This document shows, in pieces, positions 6,501 to 36,800 of a stretch of DNA of 46,702 bases. A model generated the notes under the pieces. It was not told the DNA's origin and did no database searches. It worked only from the letters and a program-made list of their open reading frames with translations. This stretch comes from a virus (lineage: Duplodnaviria; Caudoviricetes). The position numbers and the translations under genes are program-made. The first letter of the stretch is position 1, and every line of letters begins with the position of its first letter. Location of the stretch: positions 1 through 46,702 of the IMG/VR virus record IMGVR_UViG_3300035135_000709. The stretch is one strand, 5' to 3'.

Positions 6501-6687
6501 TACTACAAATGCGACATTCACTGAGATAACCAACGGTACACGTACCACAGGCTCTACTGAAGGTGGTATTATCGATCTTAGTGGCATCCTAAATACTGCA
6601 GACAGTGGAGATCGTATTGAGTTCTCTCCAACTCGAATCGATATCTACGAAGGCAGTTCCCGACGTGTGAGGTTGGGTGAGTTGTAA
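3592..6687 (+). CDS. Collagen-like fibre protein with gp9/gp10-type N-terminal attachment motif
   Basis: N-terminus [35 protein letters not shown] matches the T4 gp9/gp10 N-terminal motif; about 800 aa of Gly-X-Y; short C-terminal domain ending RRVRLGEL. Confidence 0.9.
3922..6339 (+). repeat. Gly-X-Y collagen repeat (about 268 triplets) with 63-nt/21-aa super-repeats
   Basis: [21 protein letters not shown] units, then [21 protein letters not shown] units; two GTTPG interruptions near the middle. Confidence 0.95.
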
Positions 6688-16480: not shown

Positions 16481-17377
16481 ATGTTTTATGTTTTATCTAG
16501 CCACAACATTTATGCACTCAAGCGACAGTTTAAAACACTACCAATAGATAAGACGACAGTAATAATAAATACGACTCACATTGAGTTTCGACAACAGGCG
16601 ATATCTTACTGTGAGGAAAATAAAGTTCGTTATTTTGTAACAGAGAGTGACGGCACTGCGGCCACAGGAAAGAATAGTTTCCTTGACAGGTTCGAGGAAG
16701 ATGGTGTACCATATGCAGTGTTGATAGACGGTGATGATTACCTCACTAAACGTGGGGTGGTCATGTATCAACGTTTGGTAGAACAGAAAGACGCACCGGA
16801 TGCGTTAGTGTTATTTAATCAGGTCAACATCACTGCACAGAACCATCATCTTGCAGAAAGAAGTCAAGACCCGATCAGACCACACGAAGATCCAAATACA
16901 CTGACCTCTCGATACGTCCAACAATCAGTAGTAGAAGATTGGGACAAACTAGCGGATGGACGGTTAGTGGCCGAGAATGTACCGGACATTACTGTAGAAG
17001 AAGTAGAGATGTTTAAAAAATATATCTCAACTCTTCAACATTCAATGGGTATAGATGAGTTAAGTACTCGACTTGTGTTTATGTCAAGAAAGGTCTTGCC
17101 CTATAGATTTAAAAGTTTAACGGTAGGAGAGGATACTCTTCAATACCTTGAACTGAAAGATGCGCACGAACGCGGTGAATTAAAGTTGGTTGCGCACGAT
17201 GAGAAGTTCCCGACGTACATGTATGATGTACGTATATCGGGTATTGCATTAAAAGAAAGTCAAAAGGATCAGGGTAAAGGCTTCATTGAGTGGATGCAGA
17301 TCCTTTTGTCAGAGATGGAAAGTTTAAAAGAGAATAATAAGTTACATGATACACGTGTACCTATATGGGAGTTTTAA
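16481..17377 (+). CDS. Glycosyltransferase, GT-A fold; paralog of 7268..8158
   Basis: TESDGTAATGKNSFLDRF, VLIDGDDYL and VGEDTL align with the motifs of the 7268 gene. Confidence 0.7.
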   Translation: MFYVLSSHNIYALKRQFKTLPIDKTTVIINTTHIEFRQQAISYCEENKVRYFVTESDGTAATGKNSFLDRFEEDGVPYAVLIDGDDYLTKRGVVMYQRLVEQKDAPDALVLFNQVNITAQNHHLAERSQDPIRPHEDPNTLTSRYVQQSVVEDWDKLADGRLVAENVPDITVEEVEMFKKYISTLQHSMGIDELSTRLVFMSRKVLPYRFKSLTVGEDTLQYLELKDAHERGELKLVAHDEKFPTYMYDVRISGIALKESQKDQGKGFIEWMQILLSEMESLKENNKLHDTRVPIWEF

Positions 17378-18556: not shown

Positions 18557-18579
18557 AATTTTATTTGGAGATTTATAAA

Positions 18580-19053
18580 ATGCATCCTAAAGTCGCCTTG
18601 ATCAACGAAAATGGCGTAATTGAAAGAACTGACATGGACAATGGTCGCTGGCCAGAAGACGGTGAGTCGTTAGACGGTCGCCGTGTTCAACGTATCTATG
18701 ACCTAGAGGGTCTGGAAGTTAGTGACTATATCTCAACCCGTGTGTGGTCAGATGACGCGTACGCGTTTGTTGCGGTCGATCGTCGTCCAAATATGTACGC
18801 AGATTTTGACTGGTCTACAGAACAATGGGTATGGGACACTGAACTTATTCTTAACGAGATTCGAACTGAACGTGACCGTCGTCTTATGCAGACTGACTGG
18901 GCACTAATGGTTGACACACCTCTCTCTGACGAACAACAGGCAGAGATGAAATTGTATCGTCAAGCCCTTAGAGATTTTCCATCCACTCTTGATATGACTC
19001 AAGTGATGAGTCTGCAAGATGTCGAAGATTGGCCTGTACACCCTTCGATCTAA
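18580..19053 (+). CDS. Tail fibre assembly chaperone-like protein
   Basis: C-terminal IRTERDRRLMQTDWALMVDTPLSDEQQAEMKLYRQALRDFP...WP is the typical tail-assembly-chaperone motif; ATG at 18580 has a GGAG Shine-Dalgarno. Confidence 0.8.
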   Translation: MHPKVALINENGVIERTDMDNGRWPEDGESLDGRRVQRIYDLEGLEVSDYISTRVWSDDAYAFVAVDRRPNMYADFDWSTEQWVWDTELILNEIRTERDRRLMQTDWALMVDTPLSDEQQAEMKLYRQALRDFPSTLDMTQVMSLQDVEDWPVHPSI

Positions 19054-19170: not shown

Positions 19171-22100
19171 GTGTCAGCATCGAGCATTCCACTAAAAATT
19201 AAGAATTCGAATGGTGACCTACAGGAATTCACTCCGACGGAAGAAAACTATCTTGCGTTCGCAGTGGGACAAGCATTGGCGTCTGCAGCGTCCAATGATG
19301 TCGGTAACATAAGTTTAACAGGTAATGTGAACATTGGTTCTTTCGTTGACACATTCTACAACGAGGCGACAGGAACCCACCCAGCTTCACAGATCACTTC
19401 ATCCACAACTACAACCACCCTTACTCAGGTCGGTGGTAGCGCAGATGAATCCGGCGCAAACTTTGTTCGTCCTATAGGATACTATGACGGTACTAATCCT
19501 GGCTTCTACGAAATGGTAGACCCAGATGTAACCGCACTTGCCAATCGTGTTCTAAGTAATCTTGCACAAAACGATTACGTCGGGACATTTAAACTCGCAT
19601 CAACCAGCCCAGGCGCGGACTATACTCTGTTCATCGCAGGTGTATTCCAAGATACGCGTGGTGATGGGTCATCTACTGTTTACAACATCTATCTACGCAA
19701 CAACATGTCTGCAATCGCCGCAGTACGTCCTGTTGCAACGAAATACGATGTTAACGGAGACTTCGACGGTTTCCAAGAGATGACTGATGCTCAGATCCAA
19801 TATACTATTGGTCAACGTATTAAAACATTACGTGCAACTGCAGGGAACATTGGTTCATACCAGTTACGTTCATCTGCACAAGGTGCACCTACAGCCCCAG
19901 GCACTTGGAGATCTGTAGGTTCTGCGATCAACACTACTAGACAGATCACAGACGTATCTTACTCACGTATCCGTAACTCGGCCTACGTTCGTACACGCGT
20001 TTCTGCATACACCCGCGACAGAACTTCGACTTATACTCGTGTTTCTACTCGCACTAGTACTCGTGACTTTGCAGGAAACTACGTAGGTAACTACACTCGC
20101 GATTTCGCCGGTAACTATTCACGCAACTTTGCAGGTGAATATGTCGGTGATTTCATTGGAGAGTACACACGTACTCGCCCGTCTGCATATACTCGCGATC
20201 GTGTAACTAACTTCTCACGCACGTTTACTGGCGAATACATTCTAAACCGTCAGTCAACTTATACTCGTGTACGTCTACAGGCGTTCACTGGTGCGTTCAC
20301 TGGTTACTACACTCGCGCACGTGTTTCTGTATACACTCGCAATCGTATCACTGACTTCACTGGCACTTACACTCGTACTCGTACTTCGACGTACGCTCGT
20401 GGCCGTGTGTCTACTTACACTGGTACGTATTCACGTAACCGTGTATCTGCGTATGCAGGAACTTATTCACGTACTCGTGTTTCCTCTTATAGCGGCACTT
20501 ACGCACGTAACCGTATCTCTGCATATATTGGAACTTACTCACGTTCGTTCTCTGGTCAGTACACTCGTTCTTTCCAAGGTAACTACACAGGTGAGTTTAC
20601 ACGTACTCGTACGTCATCTTACTCAGGTACTTACGCTCGCACTCGTACTTCAGCGTACGCAGGAACTTACGGTCGCAACTTCGTAGGAAACTACAGCCGT
20701 GGGTTTGCAGGTAACTACGTTGGTGAGTTTACACGTACTCGTACTTCGACATTTGCAGGGACCTATTCTCGTGAGCGTATCAGTACTTACACTGGTACTT
20801 ACGCACGTGATTTCGTAGGTAACTATACTCGCAACTTTGCAGGAAACTACTCACGTAACTTTACTCGTGGTCGCGTTAGTTCATTCTCTGGTACTTACAC
20901 ACGTAACCGTGTATCAACGTACTCAGGTACTTACTCACGTAACTTCACTGGTAACTACGCTAGAAACTTCGTAGGAAACTACTCGCGCAACTATGCACGT
21001 ACTCGCGTATCGTCTTACGCTGGAACTTATGCGCGTACTCGTGTTTCTGCGTACTCTGGAACTTACTCACGTACTCGCGTATCAGCTTACGCAGGTACTT
21101 ACTCACGCACACGTGTCTCTGCATATGCGGCTGACTATACTCGTGTTCGTGCGACTAACTATACTCGCGATCGCGTTACTAACTTCGCTGGCATCTTCTC
21201 ACGTGCACGTGTATCTACTTACACTCGCAACCGTGTGACTAACTTTGCTGGTAACTTTGTTGGTAACTACGCTCGCAACTTTGTTGGAAACTACTCACGT
21301 AACTTCGTGGGTAACTATTCTCGTGCATTCGCAGGGAACTATGTTGGTAACTACGCACGTACTTCTACTCGTACGTCTACCCGTACTCGTTACTCAGCTT
21401 ACGCACGTACCTCAACTAGAACTCGCTCATCTGCATACACTCGTGATCGCGTAACTAACTTTGCCGGTAACTTCATCGGTAACTACGCACGTGATTTCGT
21501 CGGAGACTTCGTAGGAAACTATTCACGAACTTTCGCTGGTAACTTTGCAGGTGACTTCGTAGGTAATTATACAACTACCTTCACTGGTAACTTTGTCGGT
21601 AACTACGCTCGTAACTTTGTTGGAAACTTTGCTGGTGACTTCGTCGGAAACTACGCAACCACATTTACTGGAGACTTCGTGGGTAACTATGCTCGCGGTT
21701 TCGTTGGTAACTATGGCCGTAACTTCGTCGGTAACTACACCAGAAACTTTGCAGGTAACTTCGTAGGTAACTACGCACGTGGCTTCGTAGGAAACTATGC
21801 AGGTAACTTCGTTGGTGATTATGCGCGTACTCGTGCAACCAACTACACTCGTAACCGTGTCTCTGCGTACTCACGTACTCGTGCGACTAACTATACTCGT
21901 ACTCGTAACTCCGCTTATTCACGTACTTCAGTTCGTACTCGTTACTCTGCGTATGCACGTACTTCGACTCGTACGTCAACTCGTACTTTAAGTTACACTC
22001 GTACATTGTACTACACTGGTAACTACGCTCGTGCGTTTACTCGTGATCGTACTCAGACATTCACTGCAACTGGTACCTATACTCGTACTCTATACTACGC

Positions 22101-24906
22101 GGGTGACTTTACTGGTAATTATACCCGTAATGTTACTTACACTGGTAACTATACCCGTACATTGACTTACACTGGCGACTTCGTAGGTAACTACACTCGT
22201 GGTGTTACTTACACTGGTAACTATACTCGTGGTGGACCAGTAACATATATTGGTGACTATGTTCGTTACCAGAACCCGTACGATACTGTAAACTACTATG
22301 TTGGTAACTACGTAGCTGGCGCTAACTTTACTGGCGACTTCGTAGGTAACTACGCGGGCGGTGGTGCATCGACTCGTGTATCTGCATACTCTCGTATGTA
22401 CAACTTCAACGTATACTTCTATACTCGTACGTTGTCGTTCGGTACTACTACTTACTTTACTCGTACATCGACTCGTACTTCAGTAGGTACAGGTACGGCT
22501 TACACTCGTGTGTCTACTCGTTCAGCTGCAGTGTACTACGCTGGTAACTATATCGGTACTGTTACTGAGACTTACACTCGTAACCGTGCAGCGACATTAG
22601 ACTACACTCGTACTCGTGTCACTAACTACACTGCAACAGGTACGTATACTCGTAACCGTGCGGCGACACTAGACTACACTCGTAACAGTACTCGTACTTC
22701 AACCAATACTGGTTACTACACACGTACATTGTACTATGTCGGCAACTTCGTAGGTAACTATGCGCGTAACTACGCCGCAGACTACACTCGTACTGGTTAC
22801 TACACACGTACTGGATACTACGCAGGCGACTTCGTAGGTAACTATGCGCGTGGGTTCGTCGGTGATTACGTAGGTAACTATGCTCGTTCATTCGTGGGTG
22901 ATTACGTAGGAAACTTCGTAGGAAACTACGCACGTACGTTTGTTGGTGATTACGTTGGTAACTTTGTGGGTAACTACACTCGCACATCAACCCGCACATC
23001 AACTCGTACTCGTAACTCTGCATACTCACGTACTCGTGTGACTAACTACGCTGGTGCATACACAAGATCACGTGCATCCGCATATTCACGTACTCGTTAC
23101 TCAGCTTACGCACGTACTCGTATCACTAACTACGTTGGCGACTTTACTCGTACATCAACTCGTACTTCTACTCGCAACCGTTACAGTGCATACGCTCGTA
23201 CTCGTGTTACTGACTACGTTGGTAATTTTACTCGTACTTCTACTCGTACATCAACCCGTTCACGTGGTTCTGCGTACGCACGTACACGAGTAACTAACTA
23301 CGTCGGTAACTTTACTAGAGATCGCGTAACTCAGTTCGCTGGTAACTTCGTAGGTAACTACAGCCGTAACTTCGCAGGTGACTTTGTAGGAAACTACGCT
23401 CGCGCATTTGCAGGAGACTTTGCAGGTAACTTCGTTGGTGAGTACACTCGTACTTCTACTAGAACTCGTTACAGTGCATACGCTCGTACTCGTGTATCTG
23501 CATACAGCCGTACTCGTGGTTCCGCATACACTCGTGACCGTGTAACTAACTTCGCGGGAGACTTTGTTGGAAACTATGCACGTACATTCGCTGGAAACTA
23601 CTCACGCAACTTTGCGGGTAACTTCGTTGGCGATTACGTCGGTAACTTTGCAGGAAACTACGTTGGAAACTACACTCGTGACTTCTCTGGTCAGTACGTA
23701 GGTAACTACACACGTAACTTCTCTGGTCAGTACACTGGTACTTACAACCGCAACTTTGTCGGTGAGTACACTGGTACTTACAACCGTAACTTCGTAGGTA
23801 ACTATGCACGTGCATTTACTCGCACTCGCGCATCTGCCTACTCTCGTGTACGTCCATCATCATATGCGGGAACTTACTCTCGTACATTCGTTGGTGAGTA
23901 CACTGGAACTTATAACGCAACTTACACTGGTAACTACGCTCGAGCGTATACTAGAACACGTGTATCAGCTTACTCACGTGCGCGTAACTCAACGTTCACA
24001 GGAACTTACTCACGTTCATTCTCTGGTCAATACACTGGAACGTATGCACGTGATTACGTAGGTAACTATGCGACTGACTTTACACGCAACCGTAATTCTG
24101 CATACACTCGTACTCGACTATCAACTTACGCGGGTAACTACAGCCGTGACTTCGTTGGTGAGTACACTGGTGCATACACTCGTGACTTTGCGGGCAACTA
24201 CTCTCGCAACTTCGTAAGAACTCGTGTTGAAACTTACTCACGCGACCGTGTCTCAACTTACACAGGAACCTACAACCGTGGATTCGCTGGTGAGTACACT
24301 GGAGCGTATACTCGCGACTTCTCTGGTCAGTATGTCGGTAACTACACTCGCGGCTTTGCGGGAGAGTACACTGGCACTTACAACCGTACGTTCGCAGGTG
24401 AGTACACTCGTGACTTCACTGGAAACTACACTAGACAGTTTGCAGGTGACTTCGCTGGTAACTACACTCGCACGTTCGCTGGAGAATACGCAGGAACTTA
24501 TAACCGCGACTTCGTAGGCGACTTTACTGGTAACTATGCACGTACGTTTGCAGGTAACTACATCCGCAACCGTGTCTCTGCATACGCTGGTAACTTCGTA
24601 GGTAACTACACTCGTGACTTCATCGGTAACTACTCGCGTAACTCAGTAGACACATTTGCACGTACTCGTGTATCTGCATACTCACGTCTACGTACATCTG
24701 CTTACTCAGATGTTTACGGACGTACTCGTGTCTCTACTTACGCAGGTAACTACACTGGTGACTACGCTCGTGACTTCACTGGTAACTACTCACGTGATTT
24801 CACTGGTAACTACAGTCGCGCATTTGTCGGTAACTATGTTGGTGCAACTATCCAGCCAGCGTTGCAGACAATCGAGTCATATACATTATACGTAAGGGTT
24901 GCATAA
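19171..24906 (+). CDS. Giant R/T/Y/G/N/F/S-rich tetrapeptide-repeat protein with antiparallel self-complementary arms (putative extended beta-hairpin fibre)
   Basis: 1911-aa ORF with phage-typical codons (cgt, act, ggt, tac), late promoters upstream and a terminator downstream; about 260-aa base domain followed by YxRx, RxSx, FxGx and STRT tetrads. Confidence 0.85.
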   Translation: MSASSIPLKIKNSNGDLQEFTPTEENYLAFAVGQALASAASNDVGNISLTGNVNIGSFVDTFYNEATGTHPASQITSSTTTTTLTQVGGSADESGANFVRPIGYYDGTNPGFYEMVDPDVTALANRVLSNLAQNDYVGTFKLASTSPGADYTLFIAGVFQDTRGDGSSTVYNIYLRNNMSAIAAVRPVATKYDVNGDFDGFQEMTDAQIQYTIGQRIKTLRATAGNIGSYQLRSSAQGAPTAPGTWRSVGSAINTTRQITDVSYSRIRNSAYVRTRVSAYTRDRTSTYTRVSTRTSTRDFAGNYVGNYTRDFAGNYSRNFAGEYVGDFIGEYTRTRPSAYTRDRVTNFSRTFTGEYILNRQSTYTRVRLQAFTGAFTGYYTRARVSVYTRNRITDFTGTYTRTRTSTYARGRVSTYTGTYSRNRVSAYAGTYSRTRVSSYSGTYARNRISAYIGTYSRSFSGQYTRSFQGNYTGEFTRTRTSSYSGTYARTRTSAYAGTYGRNFVGNYSRGFAGNYVGEFTRTRTSTFAGTYSRERISTYTGTYARDFVGNYTRNFAGNYSRNFTRGRVSSFSGTYTRNRVSTYSGTYSRNFTGNYARNFVGNYSRNYARTRVSSYAGTYARTRVSAYSGTYSRTRVSAYAGTYSRTRVSAYAADYTRVRATNYTRDRVTNFAGIFSRARVSTYTRNRVTNFAGNFVGNYARNFVGNYSRNFVGNYSRAFAGNYVGNYARTSTRTSTRTRYSAYARTSTRTRSSAYTRDRVTNFAGNFIGNYARDFVGDFVGNYSRTFAGNFAGDFVGNYTTTFTGNFVGNYARNFVGNFAGDFVGNYATTFTGDFVGNYARGFVGNYGRNFVGNYTRNFAGNFVGNYARGFVGNYAGNFVGDYARTRATNYTRNRVSAYSRTRATNYTRTRNSAYSRTSVRTRYSAYARTSTRTSTRTLSYTRTLYYTGNYARAFTRDRTQTFTATGTYTRTLYYAGDFTGNYTRNVTYTGNYTRTLTYTGDFVGNYTRGVTYTGNYTRGGPVTYIGDYVRYQNPYDTVNYYVGNYVAGANFTGDFVGNYAGGGASTRVSAYSRMYNFNVYFYTRTLSFGTTTYFTRTSTRTSVGTGTAYTRVSTRSAAVYYAGNYIGTVTETYTRNRAATLDYTRTRVTNYTATGTYTRNRAATLDYTRNSTRTSTNTGYYTRTLYYVGNFVGNYARNYAADYTRTGYYTRTGYYAGDFVGNYARGFVGDYVGNYARSFVGDYVGNFVGNYARTFVGDYVGNFVGNYTRTSTRTSTRTRNSAYSRTRVTNYAGAYTRSRASAYSRTRYSAYARTRITNYVGDFTRTSTRTSTRNRYSAYARTRVTDYVGNFTRTSTRTSTRSRGSAYARTRVTNYVGNFTRDRVTQFAGNFVGNYSRNFAGDFVGNYARAFAGDFAGNFVGEYTRTSTRTRYSAYARTRVSAYSRTRGSAYTRDRVTNFAGDFVGNYARTFAGNYSRNFAGNFVGDYVGNFAGNYVGNYTRDFSGQYVGNYTRNFSGQYTGTYNRNFVGEYTGTYNRNFVGNYARAFTRTRASAYSRVRPSSYAGTYSRTFVGEYTGTYNATYTGNYARAYTRTRVSAYSRARNSTFTGTYSRSFSGQYTGTYARDYVGNYATDFTRNRNSAYTRTRLSTYAGNYSRDFVGEYTGAYTRDFAGNYSRNFVRTRVETYSRDRVSTYTGTYNRGFAGEYTGAYTRDFSGQYVGNYTRGFAGEYTGTYNRTFAGEYTRDFTGNYTRQFAGDFAGNYTRTFAGEYAGTYNRDFVGDFTGNYARTFAGNYIRNRVSAYAGNFVGNYTRDFIGNYSRNSVDTFARTRVSAYSRLRTSAYSDVYGRTRVSTYAGNYTGDYARDFTGNYSRDFTGNYSRAFVGNYVGATIQPALQTIESYTLYVRVA
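19960..24846 (+). repeat. 12-nt-period coding repeat region (tetrads YTRT / RVSA / FVGN / STRT)
   Basis: Strict 4-residue periodicity at aa 264-939 and 1217-1892; the central part carries 2-residue inserts. Confidence 0.95.
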
Positions 24907-25010: not shown

Positions 25011-25472
25011 ATGAGTTACAGAAGATGGATGGATAACGCGTTCTGGGAGACAGATGCAAAAGAACAACTAAACTGCATCCTAGAAATGGAAGACGATGTT
25101 GGTCGAGTTACCCGTCAGGTTATGTTATTAAACAGGTTCGATAAGGAAGGTAATCCTAACGAACTTTTTGATGAGGTGGTATCATCACTAGGTGAGGATG
25201 TCATCGACAAAGAAACCGAAGATCGTACCGTTCGCAAGAAGGCCGAAGCGGAAGAAGAAAAACAACGCGACTTAGAACATAGGAAGGCGCGTAAACTAGA
25301 GAAACTGTTCAACTATAAGTTGGAAGCGTTCGAGGTCGATGAGATCAAGAACTCTAAGAACCGCAAGTTGAAAGGTAAGTTACGTCGTGCGAAGTCTCGC
25401 ATCGAAGTTGACTTATACTCTATTATGATTCTTCAGGAAGTGCTAGAGGCGGAAGAGAATGGAACAGAGTAA
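25011..25472 (+). CDS. Charged, helical hypothetical protein
   Basis: GGAG at 24998 before ATG 25011; E/K/R-rich; overlaps the start of the next gene. Confidence 0.7.
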   Translation: MSYRRWMDNAFWETDAKEQLNCILEMEDDVGRVTRQVMLLNRFDKEGNPNELFDEVVSSLGEDVIDKETEDRTVRKKAEAEEEKQRDLEHRKARKLEKLFNYKLEAFEVDEIKNSKNRKLKGKLRRAKSRIEVDLYSIMILQEVLEAEENGTE

Positions 25473-26193
25473 AGGTTTTGTAATCGTCGCGTCACAGAAA
25501 CATAATTTTTATCTGTACGCGATTAACTTGGCGGAATCAATTCGAGACTTCTATGAGCCAGAAGACGAATGTAAGATCTGTCTAGTTACAGAAGAAAGGT
25601 TTTTAGACGACCGTGGTCGTGAAGTTGCAGACGATATTCTTTTATGTGACGACCACTATCGTGCAAAGTTGTGGGGTATGGCCAAGTCACCTTACGACTT
25701 GACAATGTATATTGACGCTGACATGGAATGTGAGCACGAAGACATCGTCAAATGTTGGGATGAGATGAAGGACCACGATGTGGTATTCTCTGCACTCACA
25801 GACGATCGTTCTTACATCTACGCAGAGCGAGACTTTGATACACCAGAAGGTCCTCAGAAGTTCTCTTTATGCGGTGGGGTATGTTTATATGATATGTCTA
25901 AGCCGATCGTGCGAGAGTTTATGCAAGATTGGTGGGACTTAACGTTCAGACAGATGAACGACACTTGGTGGCCTAAGGGGTATGCGGACAGTCTCAAGTC
26001 TTGGGATCAGTTCTCACTCTGGTGGTTGACTGAGAGAGAAGAAAAATATAAAGACCTCAAGGTCGGTATCTTTGATGACGATTTGAGGTGGAACTATTAC
26101 AACGCCTTTAATTGGGCAATAACACAACCCGAAGGACCTGTGATCTTACGTCACTTCTCTGCAGGGTTAAATAAGGACACACCAATCGTATGA
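25459..26193 (+). CDS. Glycosyltransferase-like protein (nucleotide-diphospho-sugar transferase, GT-A)
   Basis: KGFVIVAS, RAKLWGMAKSPYDLTMYIDAD (DxD), CGGVCLY, WDQFSLW, RWNY, ILRHFS. Confidence 0.7.
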   Translation: MEQSKGFVIVASQKHNFYLYAINLAESIRDFYEPEDECKICLVTEERFLDDRGREVADDILLCDDHYRAKLWGMAKSPYDLTMYIDADMECEHEDIVKCWDEMKDHDVVFSALTDDRSYIYAERDFDTPEGPQKFSLCGGVCLYDMSKPIVREFMQDWWDLTFRQMNDTWWPKGYADSLKSWDQFSLWWLTEREEKYKDLKVGIFDDDLRWNYYNAFNWAITQPEGPVILRHFSAGLNKDTPIV

Positions 26194-26900
26194 CACAGGT
26201 AAATGATCAATATCTGAAGCATATCGAAGTCAACAATCCAGAACTTCTGGATATTCTTGATGAGTATGCGAAGTTGCACAAGTGGGATGGGTTTCTAAAG
26301 AACGCACACTGCACTGCAAAGGAACACGCACGTCAACGTCCTTATTACGTTGGCGAAAAGTACATGAAGGAAATCATGGCGATGGGTACTGGGCACGATG
26401 GCTTCCCAGAACATCTGCTTGGTTATAACTTCAAGATCTCTGATCGTGGTCACTTAATGTTTGAGAAAGACGCAGACCCACTATTCCGTCGCGACTTTAC
26501 TCATCACCTATCTGACCTAAACGATCGCATGATGAACTTCTTGTCTACTAAACACAATGCATTGTGTGCAGTATATCCACCAGAAGGTTTCATCTCGTGG
26601 CATAACAACCAGAACGCACCTGGCTTCAATCTAATCTTCTCGTACTCAGAGGATGGTCAGGGTTGGTTCGATTATGTTCATCCAGAGACAAAGGAAGTGA
26701 TCCGTTGTCAAGATGAGCCAGGGAAGTGGACATGTAAGGCTGCTTACTTTGGTTCGTTCGAGGAACCAGACAAGAGACTATACCATGCGGCATCGTCAGG
26801 TGGCGAGTGGAGAACTACTGTTTCTTATATCTTTGATTGGACTGACGCGGGTGCAGACCTACGCGAGATGGTCCTAGAAGACATTTCTGCAAAATATTAA
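26190..26900 (+). CDS. 2OG-Fe(II) oxygenase/DSBH-like protein
   Basis: YPPEGFISWHNN (HxN rather than HxD), LIFSYS, LYHAA (distal His), WRTTVSY (conserved Arg). Confidence 0.55.
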   Translation: MTQVNDQYLKHIEVNNPELLDILDEYAKLHKWDGFLKNAHCTAKEHARQRPYYVGEKYMKEIMAMGTGHDGFPEHLLGYNFKISDRGHLMFEKDADPLFRRDFTHHLSDLNDRMMNFLSTKHNALCAVYPPEGFISWHNNQNAPGFNLIFSYSEDGQGWFDYVHPETKEVIRCQDEPGKWTCKAAYFGSFEEPDKRLYHAASSGGEWRTTVSYIFDWTDAGADLREMVLEDISAKY

Positions 26901-28682: not shown

Positions 28683-31600
28683 ATGTCATTTAGACAGATT
28701 AAATCACCTGCTCTAGCCGATAAGGCTGTCATCAACACCAAACTTGACGAAAGTGCGGTACAAGGACAGAGCACCCTAACGGGGATGACCTCAACGGACC
28801 AGTGTTTTACACTGTTGTACGATGTAGGTTCGGACTCGTTGAAGAAAATCGCAGCTGACGATTTCTTCGGTTCATTTACAACAGATGATTTAGTAGAAGG
28901 TTCTAGCCAATTATACTTCACTGACACACGTGCAAAGACTGCCGTCGCTCAGGATATCGCAGACGCAGTTGCAGTTGAGGAAACTCGTGCACTTGCGGCA
29001 GAAGGCGTACTACAAGCTGCAATCGATGCAGAGGTTGTACGTGCAACTGCAGCTGAACAAGCAAATGCTCTTGCAATTTCAAATGAAGTAACACGTGCAG
29101 TAACCCGCGAAGACGCAATCGAAGCCGCTTTCCAAGCTGCAGACGCTGCGTTGTCAGTACGTATCGATAACATCCTATCGAACACTGACGAAGTCGCACT
29201 AAACTCTCTAGCAGAAATCGTAACTGCGTTCCAAGACGCGGATGACGTACTAACTGCATCAACTATCGCAAACTCTAACGCAATCGCAACTGAAGTTGCA
29301 CGTGCAACTGCTGCAGAGCAGGCAAACGCAACTGCGATCGCAACTGAGACTACTCGTGCAACTACTGCAGAAGCTGATCTACAATCACAGATCACTACTG
29401 AAGTTGCAGCTCGTGTTGCAGGCGACAATGCGCTAGACGCACGTTTGACTACTGAAGAAGGTAATGTAGATCAACTACAAACTGACCTTGCAGCAGAAGT
29501 CTCACGCGCAACTGCCGCTGAGGCAGTCATCGCACAAGACCTTGCAGACGAAGTTACTCGTGCAACTGCGGCGGAAGCTGCGAACGCACAAGCGATCACT
29601 GACGAAATCAACGCACGTGCAGTAGCGGATACTCAAGTCCGTACTGACATGACTGCATTGATCAACTCTGGTGACGCTGCAACTCTACTATCAGCGAAGG
29701 CAAACGACGATCTATTGATTGGCGACGCTACTGTTGACGGTACTGCAGGCAACACTGTAACTGATCGCATCGCAACTGCTAAGGCAGAGGCGGTCGCAAG
29801 TGCATCTACTGACGCAACTTCTAAAGTCGCTTCAGAGACCGCTGCACGTCAGGCTGCAGATTCAGACCTACAGGCACAGATCGTTTCTAACGACGGTGAG
29901 ATCGCAACTCTACAATCAGAGATGGATGCGGTTGAAGTACGTGCCACTGATCTTGAATCTCGTGCGACTGTAGTTGAAGGTCGCGTCGATGATATCATCG
30001 GCACTTCACCAGAAACACTAGACACTTTGCAAGAGATCGTCGCTGCATTTGAAGCATCCGACTCAGACATCTCTGCACTTGTCAACTCTAACACTACTGC
30101 AATCACTAACGAAGCAACTGCTCGCTCATCTGCAGATACTATCCTACAGGGTAATATCGACGCAGAGGCTGCAACTCGTGCAGCTGCAGACGTTACTTTG
30201 CAGAACAACATTGACGCAATCGAACTTGACTACATCGAACGTGACGCGGTAGTTGCTGCAAACGCAGCCGCTGACGCAACTGCGAAGGCAGACGCTGCAG
30301 AAGCTGACGCAATCGCACACGCAGATGCACAAGACGCGGCACTAATCGGTGACGCATCTGTTGACGGTACTGCAGGCAACACTGTTACTGCACGTATTGC
30401 AACTGCTAAGTCAGAAGCGACTGCATACACCGATGCACAGGTAGCGGCAGAAGCTGGTATCCGTCAGTCGGCAGACGACGCACTATCTCTACGTACTACT
30501 TCACTAGAAGGTCGTATGGATACTGCAGAGGCAGACATCACTGCACTAGAAGGTGATCTGGCTACTGAAGTCGCTGCACGTACATCCGGTGACACAACTC
30601 TACAGGGTAACATCGACGCAGAAGCGACTACTCGTGCAGCTGCTGATACTACTCTACAACAAAACATCGACGCAGAAGAAACTGCACGTATCGCTGGTGA
30701 TGCAAGTCTACAGACTCAAATCACTGCGGAAGTTACTCGTGCAACTGGTGTCGAAGCGGGTCTACGTACTGACGTTGACGCAAACACTGTGGGTGTTGCA
30801 ACTAACGCAACTAACCTATCAAACGAGATCACTCGTGCACAGTCTGCGGAAGCGGGTCTACAGACTCAAATCACTAACGAAGTCAACCGTGCAACATCTG
30901 CAGAGGCAGCCCTTGCGGCAGCTGATTCAGACGAGCAGGCTGCACGTATCGCAGGTGACGCGGCACTACGTTCAGACGTAGATGTTAACACTGCAGACAT
31001 CGCAGGTCTTGATTCAGACCTATCTGCAGAAATTGCACGTGCACAGGCAGCAGAACTAGTACTAACTCAAGACCTAGCGGCAGAGGTAACTCGTGCAACT
31101 GGTATTGAGGCAGGTCTACGTACTGACGTTGACTCAGTAACTACTCGTGTTGACAACATCATCGGCACTTCACCAGAGACTTTAGATACTCTACAAGAAA
31201 TCGTTGCTGCATTCGAAGACGCAGACTCAGACCTACAAGCAGTTATCTCTGCAAACTCAGGTCGTTTGACTGTCAACGAAGGCGACATCGACGCTCTTGA
31301 AGTACGCGCAACTGACCTTGAGTCACGTGCAACTCTAGTCGAAGGTCGTGCAACTGCACTAGAAACTGAGCAGTTGGCACAAGGTAGCCGTCTAACTGTT
31401 AACGAAGGCGACATCGACGACCTAGAAGCGAAGGTTGGTACTGCAACACTAGACACCACTGCAACTGATCTATCAGCTGCAATCAACGAACTACACGGTG
31501 AACTAGACGTAGAAGCAGGTCATGTAGACGTATTGCAATCAGAAATGGATGCAGTTGAACTACGTGCAACTACACTAGAAGGTCGTGTTGATGGTATCGA

Positions 31601-33722
31601 TTCTGATCAGGTTGTTCAGAATACTCGCCTAACTAACGCTGAATCTGCTATCACTTCAATCGAAAGTAAGGTAGGTACTGGTACATTCGACACTACTGCA
31701 CAAGACACTGTCGGTGCGGTTAACGAAGTACACGGTGAACTAGACGCGGCAGTAGCTCGCATCGACGGTCACGATTCAGACGTATCATCACTACAAGCAC
31801 AGATCACTGCAGAAGTTAACCGTGCAACTACAGAAGAAGGTCTAATCCGTTCTGAGTTCGCAACAGAAGACACTGCAATCCGTTCTGAGTTCGCTGCGGC
31901 AGACGCAGTTGTTGCGGCTAACGCTGCGGCAGACGCGACTTCTAAGGCAAACGACGCAGAAGCGAATGCGAAAGTATACGCAGACGGAATCGTTGCAACT
32001 GAAGCAACTGATCGTGCAAACGCAGACGCAGTACTACAGTCTGCAATCGACGCAGAAGTAACTCGCGCAACATCTGCAGAAGCAGCATTGTCATCTCGTG
32101 CAACTGCACTAGAGACAGAAATGACTGCAACTCAGTCTGGCGCTGGTCTAACTACTGCTGGTAACTACATTACTCCAACTGGTACTAACTACATCGATCC
32201 AACTGTTTCGTTGGCAGACGCAGATCTAAAACTAGACACTGCAATCGGTGCAGAAGTAGCTCGCGCAACTGGTGTTGAGGCTGGTCTACAGACTCAGATC
32301 ACTAACGAAGTTGCAGCTCGCATTGCGGGTGATTCAGACCTACAAGGTCAGTTGGATGCGGAAATCGCACGTGCGACTGGTGTTGAGACAACTCAGGCTG
32401 GTCTAATCCAAGCGAACGCTGATGCGATCGCGGCAGAAAGTACTGCACGTCAATCCGCTGATGCAAACCTACAGTCTCAGATTGACTTCATCAAGTCAAA
32501 CACTGATTCGGCTGCACTAGACTCACTAACAGAGATTGTCAACGCATTCCAATCTGCTGACTCTACTCTAACTGGTCTAGTATCACAGAACCAAACTGAC
32601 ATCGCTGCAAACGCAACTGCAATCTCCACTGAAACTACTGCACGTATCGCTGAAGATGCGGCAATCCGTGGTGAGTTCGCAACTGCAGACGCAACCCTAC
32701 AGACTCAGATCGATGGTAAGGTAGCGAAAGCTGGTGACACTATGTCTGGTGTCTTGAACATGGGTTCAAACAAGATCTCTGGTCTTGCTGCAGGTTCAGT
32801 TGATTCAGACGCAGTCAACAAGGGTCAGATGGACGCAGGTCTTGCTGCACAGCACATCTCAGTATTCACCACTGGTGATCTTACTGAAGGATCTAACCTA
32901 TACTACACAGATGCACGTTCACGCGCTGCATTCTCTGTAACTGACGTAGATGGTGAAGGTAACGTATCTTACAACAGCACTTCAGGTGTTCTATCAGTAT
33001 CAACTGGTAAGGCATTCACTGAGTTGGAAGACGTTGCAACTGCTTCACTAGGTACTGATAAGGCTGGATTCGTTGCACGTGTTAAGACTGACGGCTCTGC
33101 GATCGAACTAGTCGATCCAGCAGAACTACAGTTCAACGACGCTAAGCGTCAAACAATCAACGGTGACGGTTCACAGACCGTATTCGCACTAGACTTCTAC
33201 ACTCAAGAAGCGAATGCAATGGTCTTCGTTGGTGGTGTTATTCAGGATCCATCTGTACACTACTCAATCGACGCTGTAAACCAGCAGATCACATTTAACA
33301 GTGCGATCCCTGTTGGTACTCAGGCGGTAATCATCGCTCAGTCTACTAACTCAGTCGGTGTCCTAGACCCAGGCTCAGTTGGCGTTGAAACTCTGGCGGA
33401 TAACGTTAAGGCGTTTATCCAAAGTAATGATGTAGTTGTGGGAACTTCTGCAACTGTGGTATCTTCGTTCAACAAGGGATCATACCGTTCTGCTAAGTAC
33501 GTTGTGACTGTCGAATTGAACGGTGAGTTCGAGACTCGTGAATGTCTAGTAACTCACGATGGTACTAATGCATACATCGTCGAGTACGGTATTGTCTTCA
33601 CTGGCGCAAGCCTACTAGGAGACACTGACGTACAGGTGAACGGTAGTTCAATCGAACTAACTTACACCGCAGTAGGCGTTGGTGCTGTTGTTAAAGTCGC
33701 TGCAGTATACGTTGACGCATAA
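28683..33722 (+). CDS. Long alpha-helical coiled-coil fibre protein
   Basis: Ala/Thr/Asp/Glu-rich EVxRATAAE repeats, four LDTLQEIVAAF-type knots, TTDDLVEGSSQLYFT motifs, C-terminal YRSAKYVV..LVTHDGTNAYIVEYG domain; GGAG Shine-Dalgarno. Confidence 0.8.
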   Translation: MSFRQIKSPALADKAVINTKLDESAVQGQSTLTGMTSTDQCFTLLYDVGSDSLKKIAADDFFGSFTTDDLVEGSSQLYFTDTRAKTAVAQDIADAVAVEETRALAAEGVLQAAIDAEVVRATAAEQANALAISNEVTRAVTREDAIEAAFQAADAALSVRIDNILSNTDEVALNSLAEIVTAFQDADDVLTASTIANSNAIATEVARATAAEQANATAIATETTRATTAEADLQSQITTEVAARVAGDNALDARLTTEEGNVDQLQTDLAAEVSRATAAEAVIAQDLADEVTRATAAEAANAQAITDEINARAVADTQVRTDMTALINSGDAATLLSAKANDDLLIGDATVDGTAGNTVTDRIATAKAEAVASASTDATSKVASETAARQAADSDLQAQIVSNDGEIATLQSEMDAVEVRATDLESRATVVEGRVDDIIGTSPETLDTLQEIVAAFEASDSDISALVNSNTTAITNEATARSSADTILQGNIDAEAATRAAADVTLQNNIDAIELDYIERDAVVAANAAADATAKADAAEADAIAHADAQDAALIGDASVDGTAGNTVTARIATAKSEATAYTDAQVAAEAGIRQSADDALSLRTTSLEGRMDTAEADITALEGDLATEVAARTSGDTTLQGNIDAEATTRAAADTTLQQNIDAEETARIAGDASLQTQITAEVTRATGVEAGLRTDVDANTVGVATNATNLSNEITRAQSAEAGLQTQITNEVNRATSAEAALAAADSDEQAARIAGDAALRSDVDVNTADIAGLDSDLSAEIARAQAAELVLTQDLAAEVTRATGIEAGLRTDVDSVTTRVDNIIGTSPETLDTLQEIVAAFEDADSDLQAVISANSGRLTVNEGDIDALEVRATDLESRATLVEGRATALETEQLAQGSRLTVNEGDIDDLEAKVGTATLDTTATDLSAAINELHGELDVEAGHVDVLQSEMDAVELRATTLEGRVDGIDSDQVVQNTRLTNAESAITSIESKVGTGTFDTTAQDTVGAVNEVHGELDAAVARIDGHDSDVSSLQAQITAEVNRATTEEGLIRSEFATEDTAIRSEFAAADAVVAANAAADATSKANDAEANAKVYADGIVATEATDRANADAVLQSAIDAEVTRATSAEAALSSRATALETEMTATQSGAGLTTAGNYITPTGTNYIDPTVSLADADLKLDTAIGAEVARATGVEAGLQTQITNEVAARIAGDSDLQGQLDAEIARATGVETTQAGLIQANADAIAAESTARQSADANLQSQIDFIKSNTDSAALDSLTEIVNAFQSADSTLTGLVSQNQTDIAANATAISTETTARIAEDAAIRGEFATADATLQTQIDGKVAKAGDTMSGVLNMGSNKISGLAAGSVDSDAVNKGQMDAGLAAQHISVFTTGDLTEGSNLYYTDARSRAAFSVTDVDGEGNVSYNSTSGVLSVSTGKAFTELEDVATASLGTDKAGFVARVKTDGSAIELVDPAELQFNDAKRQTINGDGSQTVFALDFYTQEANAMVFVGGVIQDPSVHYSIDAVNQQITFNSAIPVGTQAVIIAQSTNSVGVLDPGSVGVETLADNVKAFIQSNDVVVGTSATVVSSFNKGSYRSAKYVVTVELNGEFETRECLVTHDGTNAYIVEYGIVFTGASLLGDTDVQVNGSSIELTYTAVGVGAVVKVAAVYVDA

Positions 33723-33803: not shown

Positions 33804-36800
33804 ATGAGTACAAATAAAAAGTTCAGAATACAGAACGGTCTCGATGTCACTGGTGAAGTGGTCGTCGGTGGCGTTACTGTAATTAACGCTGACGGTACCG
33901 TTGTTTCCGATGTAAGTGACCAACTTGTTCCTCTTCAGGCAGATGTTGCGGCCTTAGAAACTTCAATCGCAAACATTCTTGGTACATCGCCAGAAACTCT
34001 TGATACCCTTCAAGAGCTGGTTGCCGCATATGAAAGTGCGGATGCAGATCTGACTGTCTTGGTTACGCAAACTAGCCAAGCTGTTACAGATCTGGAAAAC
34101 TCAGTAGGTGCGGGTGCGGCATTGACTGTTACATCTCAACCTACTACTATTAACTATGAAGAGTCATTGGGTTCAGTATTCAAGATATTTGCATCTGATA
34201 ATCATGATCAGGGTATATTATACTCTTCGAATAACTATAACTCAGTTACAGTTTTCAACAGATATAATACATCTAACTCTGCACTACAAGAAGAAGGGTT
34301 CGATAAGTCTTTTGTAACTTCAGACGCATTCTTCTTGCATCATGACGACAGAGTTATCGAATATCCATTAGATGAAAATGCGATCGAGAACGATCAACGT
34401 GCAGTAGAATACGTTGGTTGGCCAGCTAACGAATATAGCAGAATGATATACGCGGATGATGACGTGGTTGCGTTAATCACCGATGATAATATGTCTTCTG
34501 CACGATTCCGTGTATGGACTCGTGGTGACGGTTATTCTGGTACAACTATTGCCATTCCAACACCTGCAGAGGATTGGAACCATTCTTGGGGTAGAACAAT
34601 CACTCGAGCTGGGGACTACTTTGTAATTGGTGGTTCTCGTGGTGGTTCGATTCATAACCTAGACGGATCTTTCGTCAAGTACTTCTATGCAAGCACATAT
34701 TTCTCAAACACTCAAGATGTTAACTTCGGTGGAGACAATAAGAAATCTGCAGTAGCATCTTACGGAAATACACTTGTTATTGGTTGTCCAAATGCCGCTC
34801 GCAGAAGTGGTATCGGTGCTACAGGTGCGATATTAATCTTCGACATGAATGATTTTAACATCATGCCGACGGTTGTATATTGTCCAACACCAGATTACCC
34901 GAATGATAAATTTGGTTATTCGGTTGATGTGACTGCTGATCGTATTTACGTTTCGGCCCCAGGCATCAACCAGACTAATGGCGACCATCCTAAAGGTCGT
35001 GCGTTCGTCTTGGAGTTAGATGGTACTTTGGTACAAGAGATAACCGATCCAAACCCTAACAGCATCTACCGTAACTTTGCGTATTTCCTTGGTGTTTCTG
35101 GAACTACTTTGGCTATCGCTGCAGAGGGTTATGATAACTCTATCGGAAGTAAAGGTGGTATCTACCTATATGACACTGAAGATTTAGCCTCAGGTCATGT
35201 TGAAGAACTAGTTTACCCAGGCACTGATTTAGATTATCCAAAGCGATTCCACGTAACTACTGCAGAGCTGTTGACACAAGCTGCATCCGACGTTATCGTT
35301 CCATCGTCAGGTGTTGTTCCTGCTATCAACTATCTTGAAGACAAGACAAATGATATGCAGACTGAGATCAATGCTCTGACAGGTCAGGACACGTCTCTAA
35401 GTACGTCTATCGATGCAAACACTGCAGCGATTACTGCTGAGACTGCACGTGCACAGGCCGCGGAGTCTGCGAACTGGAATGCAATCCAGAACGAAATCAC
35501 ACGTGCGACTGCGGTAGAAGATGCAAATACTTCTGCAATCTCAGATGAAAGTGTTGCACGTGCGGCTGGTGACTCTGCGTTACAATCACAGATTGATGCG
35601 ATTGTTGGTACGTCTCCAGAGACTTTGGATACACTACAAGAAATTGTAGCGGCATTCGAAGGTGCAGATAGTGACCTACAGGCAGTGATGACCGCAAACG
35701 CTTCTACGATCTCTGAGTTAGAGAGCGCTATTGGCTCTAATGTTTCTACCGATCCAAACCTACCTGCATCATTTAGTGTTGATGGATATGGTTCTGGTTA
35801 TCACTCAGACTTCTTCAAGACTATAAGTGGAGAGTCGTATACTATAAGTGGTAACAATAGTGGTAGTCCGTTCTATGTTCGTGTAATTGATGTAGATGGT
35901 AATCAGTTAGAAAACATTTATATGAACCCGAATGGGGTTAGTTGGTCAGGATCATTTACTGGTAACGGTTCTGTTGTAAAACTACAGTTCTACATTGACC
36001 ATGAAAACCCACAAAGCTTCAACTCTGTATCGTTCTCAGGAACTACGGGTTCTGCTGGTTTAGAGACAACAGCTACAACAGTATTTGGTGCGGTTAACGA
36101 ACTACACACCGAACTACAGACACTTGCCGGTTTAGACACTAGCATTGTGAGTGACGTGTCTGCAAACACTCAGGCGATCGCTGACGAAGTTGCCCGTGCA
36201 ACTGCGGCAGAGGCTTCACTGTCTACTTCGATTTCAAATGAGTCAACTGCACGTAACACTGCAGTAAGTGGTCTACAATCACAGGTCACTTCTAACGCAT
36301 CTGCAATCACTGCAGAAGAGTCTCGTGCACTAGCTGCAGAGGCAGGTCTTGCAACTCAAATCGCTGCAGAATCTACTGCACGTGATAGTGCAATCTCTGC
36401 TGAGGCTTCACTACGTGAGGCGGGTGACGCTGCACTACAGGCTGCAATCGACGCAAGTGTATCGACTACTGATCTAAGTGTTAGTGGTACTGCAACATTC
36501 GAGGGCGGAATCAACGTTGGTTCTAACGGTGGTTCAATCGGATACGACGACACTTCTGAAGATATTCAGATGATGTCAGATGTGGATATGCAAGGTAACT
36601 TGATCCACAATCTAGGTACTCCGGTAGACGCTACAGACGCTGCATCTAAGTCATATGTTGACGGTCGTATCAGTGATGTTATCGGTGGTTCGGTTGAGTC
36701 ACTAGACACAATCCAAGAAGTTGTTGCTGCATTCGAAAGTGCTGATAGTGATATCCAGGGCTTGATCGCGGCAAATACTGCAAACCACGCAACTAATGCA

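Follow-up and report, generated by a model that had tools for sequence, protein, structure and literature searches.

A candidate fold-back fibre protein with mirror-complementary arms from an uncultured T4-like marine phage

The window analysed here is the whole of viral record IMGVR_UViG_3300035135_000709, a 46.7 kb stretch of DNA from an uncultured T4-like marine phage. It carries a gene for a 1911-residue protein in which two long arms, built from four-residue units, are complementary to each other in mirror order, the units of the outgoing (N) arm facing fitting units of the returning (C) arm when the latter is read backwards. The product is very probably a fold-back fibre, whose chain would run out from a base domain, turn, and return antiparallel to itself so that the C-terminus completes the base.

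Mirror complementarity of the two arms

The mirror complementarity of the two arms is confirmed. Residues 264–939 and 1217–1892 were each cut into 169 tetrads and paired in reverse order, such that the first residues of facing tetrads satisfy i+j=2153 (register 0; the sum i+j is termed S below). All 62 Arg-initial tetrads, 36 in the N arm and 26 in the C arm, lie opposite a tetrad of the type [FY]xGx, the partner beginning with F in 60 cases and with Y in two. The same holds for all 16 Ser-initial tetrads, eight in each arm, giving 78/78 Arg- or Ser-initial tetrads that face [FY]xGx at register 0. When the arms were slid against each other the best mirror alignment elsewhere reached 53/76 (offset -2), and the best direct, non-reversed alignment 40/53. 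Second-order Markov nulls of the C arm did not reach 100% at any of 121 offsets in any of 2000 trials, the maximum being 84%. Moreover, the mutual information between residues peaks at S=2153, with 1.29 bits against a mean of 0.78 (standard deviation 0.16) for sums of the same S mod 4 class.

A pair matrix trained on residues 264–939 only was then applied to the untrained centre of the protein. Residues 948–1019 align without gaps to residues 1205–1134 at the same S=2153, directly through the mirrored 2-residue inserts, six of which are found near the tip of the N arm. The alignment score was 47.1 in reversed order, compared with 18.1 in direct order and 21.7 +/- 3.4 for shuffles (n=30). Complementarity ends at about residues 1019 and 1134, so the paired part comprises 756 residues per arm. 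Within the turn, or apex, between these points (residues 1020–1133) self-complementarity was found at no register within +/-12 of S=2153. The symmetry axis falls at residue 1076.5, and the motif YSRMYNFNVYF begins at residue 1073. A preliminary description of this DNA had claimed the unbroken 169-tetrad register with its Arg and Ser counts, the matching of the 2-residue inserts and an axis near residue 1076, and had expected a peak of mutual information near S=2153; all of these were reproduced. Its figure of about 800 residues per arm has to be lowered to 756, with a turn of about 114 residues.

At S=2153 the position-1 pairs include 66 Y-Y and 60 R-F/F-R pairs and no R-R pair, and the position-3 pairs include 84 R-G/G-R, 45 S-R/R-S, 14 G-G and two R-R. 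A pair table that is equally clean is obtained at S=2155, where the pairs are Y-R, R-G and F-S; judged from the sequence, the residue-level register may be either, both fitting equally well. Two further measures were tried and rejected. Anticorrelation of side-chain volumes reached its minimum at S=2156 (-0.27) with similar values elsewhere and so does not fix the residue register, and mirror autocorrelation of the aromatic positions alone was non-discriminating, since even the 1911-residue protein peaked at a wrong S. Unit positions 2 and 4 are occupied by small or polar residues (T, V, A, S / N, T, D, A), as would be expected if they lined the opposite face of a strand.

The composition of the arm region is extreme. 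Residues 264–1892 (1629 residues) contain 225 Arg (13.8%), 70 acidic residues and no Lys, His, Cys or Trp, which amounts to a net charge of about +155. The arms of one homologue, P0005, are built instead of Asp/Glu-rich units with the same aromatic residue at every fourth position; because this homologue is acidic, charge is not the conserved feature.

Table 1. Coordinates of the giant gene, its parts and the preceding open reading frame (ORF) within the window
Feature	Position	Strand	Remarks
Whole gene, 1911 residues + stop	19171..24906	+	GTG start; open reading frame throughout
Base domain, residues 1–263	19171..19959	+	Three internal repeats, each strand-strand-helix then two or three strands
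Outgoing (N) arm, residues 264–1019 (756 residues)	19960..22227	+	Four-residue units [FY]x[RG]x, RxSx, STRT
Turn / apex, residues 1020–1133 (~114 residues)	22228..22569	+	Mean log-odds -1.1 to -2.5
Returning (C) arm, residues 1134–1892	22570..24846	+	Reverse-order complement of N arm, unit first residues i+j=2153
C-terminal clasp, residues 1893–1911, TIQPALQTIESYTLYVRVA	24847..24903	+	Probably supplies the last strand that base repeat 3 lacks
162-residue ORF, phage tail assembly chaperone domain	18565..19053	+	PF16778 E 1.7e-16; phrog_4912

Base domain, C-terminus and relatives

The third of the three repeats in the base domain lacks its last strand. Alignment of family profiles with hhalign matched repeat 2 to repeat 3 with a probability of 94% (E 9e-8), up to the DTR-GDG / NTTR turn, and the C-terminal tail, TIESYTLYVRV, aligned to SSTVYNIYLRN, the repeat-2 strand directly after the DTR-GDG turn. 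As the tail matches the strand that follows the repeat-2 turn, the arms appear to take the place of a 2-3-residue hairpin turn, and the last 11–19 residues are likely to complete the base domain as the missing strand of repeat 3. The C-terminal motif is widely shared: out of 154 family proteins, some of which may be incomplete, 90 proteins of 404–2503 residues end in ETYTLYVRxx, and the 1911-residue protein itself ends in IESYTLYVRVA.

An AlphaFold2 model of a 436-residue relative, P0069, was built from a 36-sequence alignment and had a predicted template modelling score (pTM) of 0.68. The base and the last 16 residues were modelled with a predicted local distance difference test score (pLDDT) above 90 (91–97 for the C-terminal 16). 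In the model the strand/helix pattern occurs three times, and two long strands, E260–284 and E408–434, lead into and out of the arms. When the modelled base, including the C-terminal strand, was compared with 48,161 chains using VIA-align, four matches stood apart at Z 7.1, 6.6, 5.8 and 5.2, the next being at Z 3.0; these four align over 116–120 residues with a root-mean-square deviation of 3.5–4.7 and 7–10% sequence identity, and the match extends to the final residue of the model. In the ESM Atlas the best score was 0.77, for unnamed viral clusters that have no model. At the sequence level the protein matched no PHROG family and no Pfam family (E<=0.01, base or whole protein), and phmmer searches against all PDB chains gave no match at E<=10 for the base and none at E<=1 for the whole protein.

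A search with the base domain returned 349 cluster representatives (50% identity) at E<=0.001, 157 of them at E<=1e-30, and family members range from 404 to 3347 residues. In a scan of viral contigs 40 loci were found, 29 with complete ORFs and 11 running off the locus; after five exact duplicates were dropped, and L019 and L025 set apart because they lack the N anchor, 22 distinct proteins of 834–2282 residues were left. For each of these the two anchors, and nothing else, served to predict the mirror register, and compliance was scored on canonical RxS/T units. At the register so predicted 14/22 proteins are 100% compliant and one more reaches 44/45. The fully compliant set comprises L004 (61/61), a second viral contig that encodes an identical copy of the 1911-residue protein, and relatives with 77/77, 51/51 (three proteins), 48/48 (two), 46/46 (two), 43/43, 41/41 (two), 28/28 and 11/11. 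The arms of L019 and L025, compared by alignment, pair without gaps over 608 and 600 residues, respectively.

Arm lengths change in concert. In all four relatives compared, the net differences from the 1911-residue protein are equal in the N and C arms: +176/+176 in L007, -176/-176 in L005, 118/118 in L009 and 140/140 in L016. Likewise, the inserts that distinguish L020 from L023 are mirror-ordered, being 12, 2 and 10 residues in the N arm and 10, 2 and 12 residues in the C arm. The apex carries variable inserts among relatives, for example 92 residues in L017 relative to L016. As a separate observation, L005, the 1911-residue protein and L007 (1566, 1911 and 2282 residues; 84–90% identity) form a series that differs in a 176-residue (44-unit) module, carried or lacking at mirror positions of both arms.

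The phage-record collection contains a single relative, phage C48C1 (Kyanoviridae), a name that a literature search found in no phage paper; the DNA of its terminase region is 83% identical. Its homologue (L002, 612–10655) is 3347 residues long and shares the base domain, at 67.8% identity. The N arm of this protein (residues 267–1253) is contiguous and the C arm is broken by six inserts of 42–277 residues. Its arms nevertheless score 837 in reversed order and 243 in direct order, block shuffles giving 475 +/- 16 (12-residue blocks) and 592 +/- 18 (48-residue blocks), and 91/99 R/S units lie opposite G units. The globular inserts of C48C1 and of L030 (residues 1167–1391) are found in the returning C arm only, never in the outgoing arm. 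One of those in C48C1 adjoins a 46-residue stretch that is duplicated, and a Pfam search of the C48C1 C-arm inserts returned no family.

Among 80 more distant homologues of different chemistry, 70 score higher in reversed than in direct order and 41 reach z>3, and anchor-based pairing in 85 homologues gave 175/330 at offset 0 compared with 22–38% at eight other offsets. A family-wide scan of mutual information, which is edge-biased, adds weak support, with 9/81 proteins peaking within +/-4 of the anchor S (8/80 when the 1911-residue protein is left aside).

Proposed fold and its alternatives

In the proposed fold the chain would leave the small three-repeat base and extend as a 756-residue strand built of four-residue units, turn within the apex of about 114 residues, and return antiparallel, so that residue i adjoins residue ~2153-i; the last 11–19 residues would then complete the base. 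The two arms would thereby be the greatly extended strands of one β-hairpin of base repeat 3, lying side by side throughout and probably in physical β-type contact. Each rung would consist of a bulky residue and a partner that fits it: Arg at position 3 would face Gly or Ser, the aromatic residue at position 1 would face another aromatic residue or Arg, and Arg-Arg pairs would be avoided. The irregular order of unit types would make one register far better than any other, and the unit pattern might in this way act as a 'barcode' during folding. The preliminary description had likewise suggested an antiparallel fold-back in a single register, and the closure of the base, the registers predicted from the anchors, the equal changes in arm length, the tiling of the C48C1 arms and the lack of an inverted repeat in the DNA all support it.

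Several results weigh against the fold-back proposal. The similarity between repeats 1 and 2 of the base is weak (hhalign probability 12%), and the alignment of the tail to repeat 2, with 11 columns and E 0.003, is weak by itself. Beyond about 15 residues from the base the arms of the P0069 model fall below pLDDT 50, and contact between strands 260–284 and 408–434 is suggested because both are long strands by DSSP. AlphaFold2 run without an alignment on residues 860–1293 of the protein itself gave no confident hairpin (pLDDT 35.7, pTM 0.20). The fold match of the base, at Z 5.2–7.1, is middling by the scale of the tool, and Foldseek searches returned nothing significant (best E 0.34 in the PDB and 0.58 in BFVD).

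Further points on this side come from the relatives. Seven of the 22 depart from the constant register: L011 (31/51), L027 (43/54), L030 and L038 (29/38 each), L035 (29/37), L040 (28/35) and L039 (2/25). One-arm inserts or local shifts account for some of these exceptions, but not for all of them. L030 has a 221-residue insert in the C arm only, and L027 and L040 drift locally and then regain the same register. The low count of L011 is due to a single 24-residue deletion in its C arm only: apart from this deletion, which lies in a 12-residue tandem repeat (L009 C arm, residues ~1439–1462), the protein is 99.9% identical to the fully compliant L009 (51/51). The deletion may reflect a collapse during assembly, or it may be natural, as a one-arm intermediate or a tolerated bulge. 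Finally, no point covariation was seen, with none of 718 homologous tetrad pairs showing an R|G <-> G|R swap (674 unchanged, 42 changed on one side and two altered on both sides without a swap; 258 more pairs were left out of the count since their partners did not align to each other). Of the two features that the preliminary description had proposed to look for among homologues, equality of the arms was seen in the net length changes of 4/4 relatives and anti-diagonal point covariation was absent. The coupling of the arms rests on paired insertions and deletions together with compliance with the pairing rule.

The same antiparallel pairing could in principle be made between chains, in a domain-swapped dimer or cyclic oligomer whose bases are each completed by the C-terminus of a neighbour, so that the rod could reach double length or a swapped bundle could form. 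The complementary sequences, the matching arms and the closure of the base would look alike whether a chain paired with itself or with another. As a rule, phage fibres are oligomers. PMC12143355 terms tail fibres trimeric. Arrangements of this kind are nonetheless unlikely. The apex of about 114 residues is not self-complementary at any nearby register, and the unpaired inserts of 92 residues on one side of the apex in relatives are easier to reconcile with a loop or knob than with an unbroken duplex. Moreover, the arms emerge from two strands that neighbour one another in one hairpin of repeat 2, and in the monomer model the C-terminus of the chain sits in its own base at pLDDT >90.

It is more improbable still that the arms do not touch, each forming a local β-solenoid or other repeat fold, with the mirror pattern arising from some other constraint or from a shared repeat grammar. 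A local repeat fold is conceivable for tetrads that place an aromatic residue at every fourth position, and the failure of AlphaFold2 to give a confident hairpin for the centre is in keeping with one. However, a local fold leaves unexplained why 78/78 is reached at one mirror offset only, why net arm-length changes are equal in 4/4 relatives, why the inserts of 12, 2 and 10 residues are answered by 10, 2 and 12, and why direct-order scores are so low (243 vs 837 in C48C1, with reversed order winning in 70/80 distant homologues).

At the DNA level, the reverse-complement identity of the arms near the register is 0.29–0.36, no higher than at all in-phase offsets, which rules out a DNA palindrome or inverted repeat as the source of the mirror pattern. 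That the DNA gave rise to the pattern incidentally, through an inverted repeat read in frame or a recent tandem duplication, in an ORF that need not encode a folded protein, is scarcely credible: the region is indeed highly repetitive (11 direct-repeat families) with unusual GC and AT skew, but the skew does not change sign between the arms, the repeat copies are only 60–84% alike, the ratio of non-synonymous to synonymous substitution rates (dN/dS) against three relatives is 0.11–0.15 in the arms (1272–1625 aligned codons) and 0.06–0.13 in the base, and the ORF has been kept open at 834–3347 residues in dozens of relatives.

Within the fold-back proposal the arms could form a plain two-stranded ribbon or part of an oligomeric tube of several packed hairpins, both of which fit the sequence. 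A base of three repeats within one chain speaks against any need for a trimer. A narrow tube of several hairpins would, by analogy with the T4 fibre protein gp37, also explain the rule that bulky residues face small ones. A β-strand rises about 0.33 nm per residue, and an arm of 756 residues would measure about 250 nm if straight. A more specific version, in which the protein is a quarter-micrometre single-chain 'stem-loop', a two-stranded antiparallel ladder of ~190 four-residue rungs grown from one hairpin turn of a pseudo-threefold base, with its register set by the order of unit types and its length tuned by equal modules in both arms, is put forward tentatively and, all its particulars taken together, is rather less likely than not.

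The genomic setting suggests a function. The estimated completeness of the record is 26%. Its T4-type structural genes, identified by PHROG matches, all lie on the + strand; genes for baseplate wedge subunits precede a run of fibre-like and chaperone-like genes, and downstream follow those for the head-tail adaptor, head closure, sheath stabiliser, small and large terminase, tail sheath and tail tube. The 162-residue ORF with a tail assembly chaperone domain is a possible folding helper for the 1911-residue protein or for the product of the preceding fibre gene, and the order of chaperone ORF and giant gene is also present in phage C48C1. The position of this fibre/chaperone cluster between baseplate-wedge and neck genes, together with the variable apex inserts, the side domains in the returning arms of relatives and the LamG/FG-GAP modules of a base described below, points to a host-contact fibre. 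The protein is, judged from this context, most likely a long thin fibre of that kind, with binding carried out by a variable tip and side domains.

The base with LamG/FG-GAP modules is that of P0002, an incomplete metagenome protein of 1798 residues. Repeats 2 and 3 of its base are separated by an inserted Laminin_G_3 domain (E 2.5e-23) and a set of eight FG-GAP repeats (E 3.6e-90); the base, too, seems able to take up binding modules.

The phage seems to encode several very long fibre proteins of differing designs. An ORF at 3592-6687 (+, 1031 residues, GC 0.57) has numerous matches among the collagen-like tail-fibre PHROGs, the best at E 2.6e-224, and the long opposite-strand ORFs that overlap it (e.g. 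4843-6312, 489 residues) are probably by-products of its repeat. Two giant ORFs, 28683-33722 (+, 1679 residues) and 33804-38516 (+, 1570 residues), have almost no family matches; the former contains 19% Ala and repeats of the 'AAEQANA' type, suggesting a coiled-coil fibre. Inside the fibre cluster, and flanking the giant gene on both sides, are three ORFs of non-repetitive, ordinary composition with no PHROG or Pfam match: 16481-17377, 25459-26193 and 26190-26900 (all +; 298, 244 and 236 residues). Their products might, for example, modify the fibres.

The family is widespread, with 349 clusters at 50% identity, and its shaft appears to be one self-paired chain whose register can be read from the sequence. 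Confirmation of the fold-back architecture would establish a new principle for building slender protein rods of great length, whose pairing rule is simple, seems modular and could be tested and reused in protein design. It would also provide a natural system whose two protein halves must change length together, and the origin of paired insertions would become testable, with one-arm forms such as L011 as possible snapshots. In addition, abundant uncultured marine T4-like phages would gain a candidate host-recognition fibre with a variable tip and side domains.

Comparison with known systems

The fold-back fibre family appears new to the literature. No description of the family, or of such an architecture at this scale, was found in the literature searched, subscription journals and supplements lying outside its scope, and the accessible part of a tail-fibre structure atlas (PMC12143355) contains no occurrence of 'hairpin', 'antiparallel' or 'fold back'. 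The preliminary description knew of no phage protein with this architecture. That statement has to be qualified by a small out-and-back precedent, the needle of T4 gp37, as described in PMC6957217.

Other fibre shafts share with the 1911-residue protein a long, low-complexity repeat in a fibre cluster. The known collagen-like, triple β-helix and triple β-spiral shafts are parallel trimers, with each chain running one way. The 1911-residue protein differs from them in that its halves are mirror-complementary and in that it has no PHROG or Pfam fibre match.

The four chains that stand apart in the structural comparison of the base are Mp2Ba1 (8b6v, Z 7.1), Plu-MACPF (2qp2, Z 6.6), the MABP domain of MVB12B (3tow, Z 5.8) and the P2 domain of perforin-2 (6sb1, Z 5.2), which we take to share one three-fold β-prism fold; all but 3tow are entries of MACPF/perforin type. 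The likeness lies in the three internal repeats of the base, of which repeats 1 and 2 resemble each other weakly. None of the four entry titles names a phage or a fibre, and the base has no Pfam match. To our knowledge, none of the four has a long insert in a hairpin turn.

The closest parallel in topology is the tip of gp37, whose needle, with about 64 residues per arm, is the only documented out-and-back fibre part in the sources available to us. In gp37 domain D10 is formed by residues 811–881 and 1010–1026, with the needle, D11 (residues 882–1009), between them; the needle is an intertwined trimer that holds seven iron ions on His motifs, and in the stem a Gly faces a Phe of another subunit, where a larger side chain would clash (PMC6957217). 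Both proteins are thus T4-like phage fibre components in which an out-and-back part is flanked by two distant segments that form one domain, a likeness of topology only. The differences are considerable. The arms of the 1911-residue protein are about 12 times longer (756 residues); there is no His among residues 264–1892, in contrast to the iron-binding motifs of gp37; and the base consists of three repeats in a single chain, whereas the collar of gp37 is made of three chains. A tetrad repeat or unit-pairing rule, present in the 1911-residue protein, is not described for gp37 in the available text of PMC6957217. As to a relation with the collar domains of gp37 (D10), gp12, gp10 and gp11, the phmmer searches of all PDB chains gave no match, and the base model aligns to T4 gp11 over 49 residues with Z 2.9 in VIA-align.

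The nucleic-acid stem-loop is comparable by analogy only. Its units are not those of the protein, which are four residues long and obey a permissive rule whereby a G-type unit faces an R-, S-, Y- or G-type unit, and RNA stems show the compensatory swaps that are absent from this family (0/718). Nevertheless, the two have in common arms in reversed order, a pairing rule, a register set by an irregular sequence, a loop, and arm lengths that are coupled to each other.

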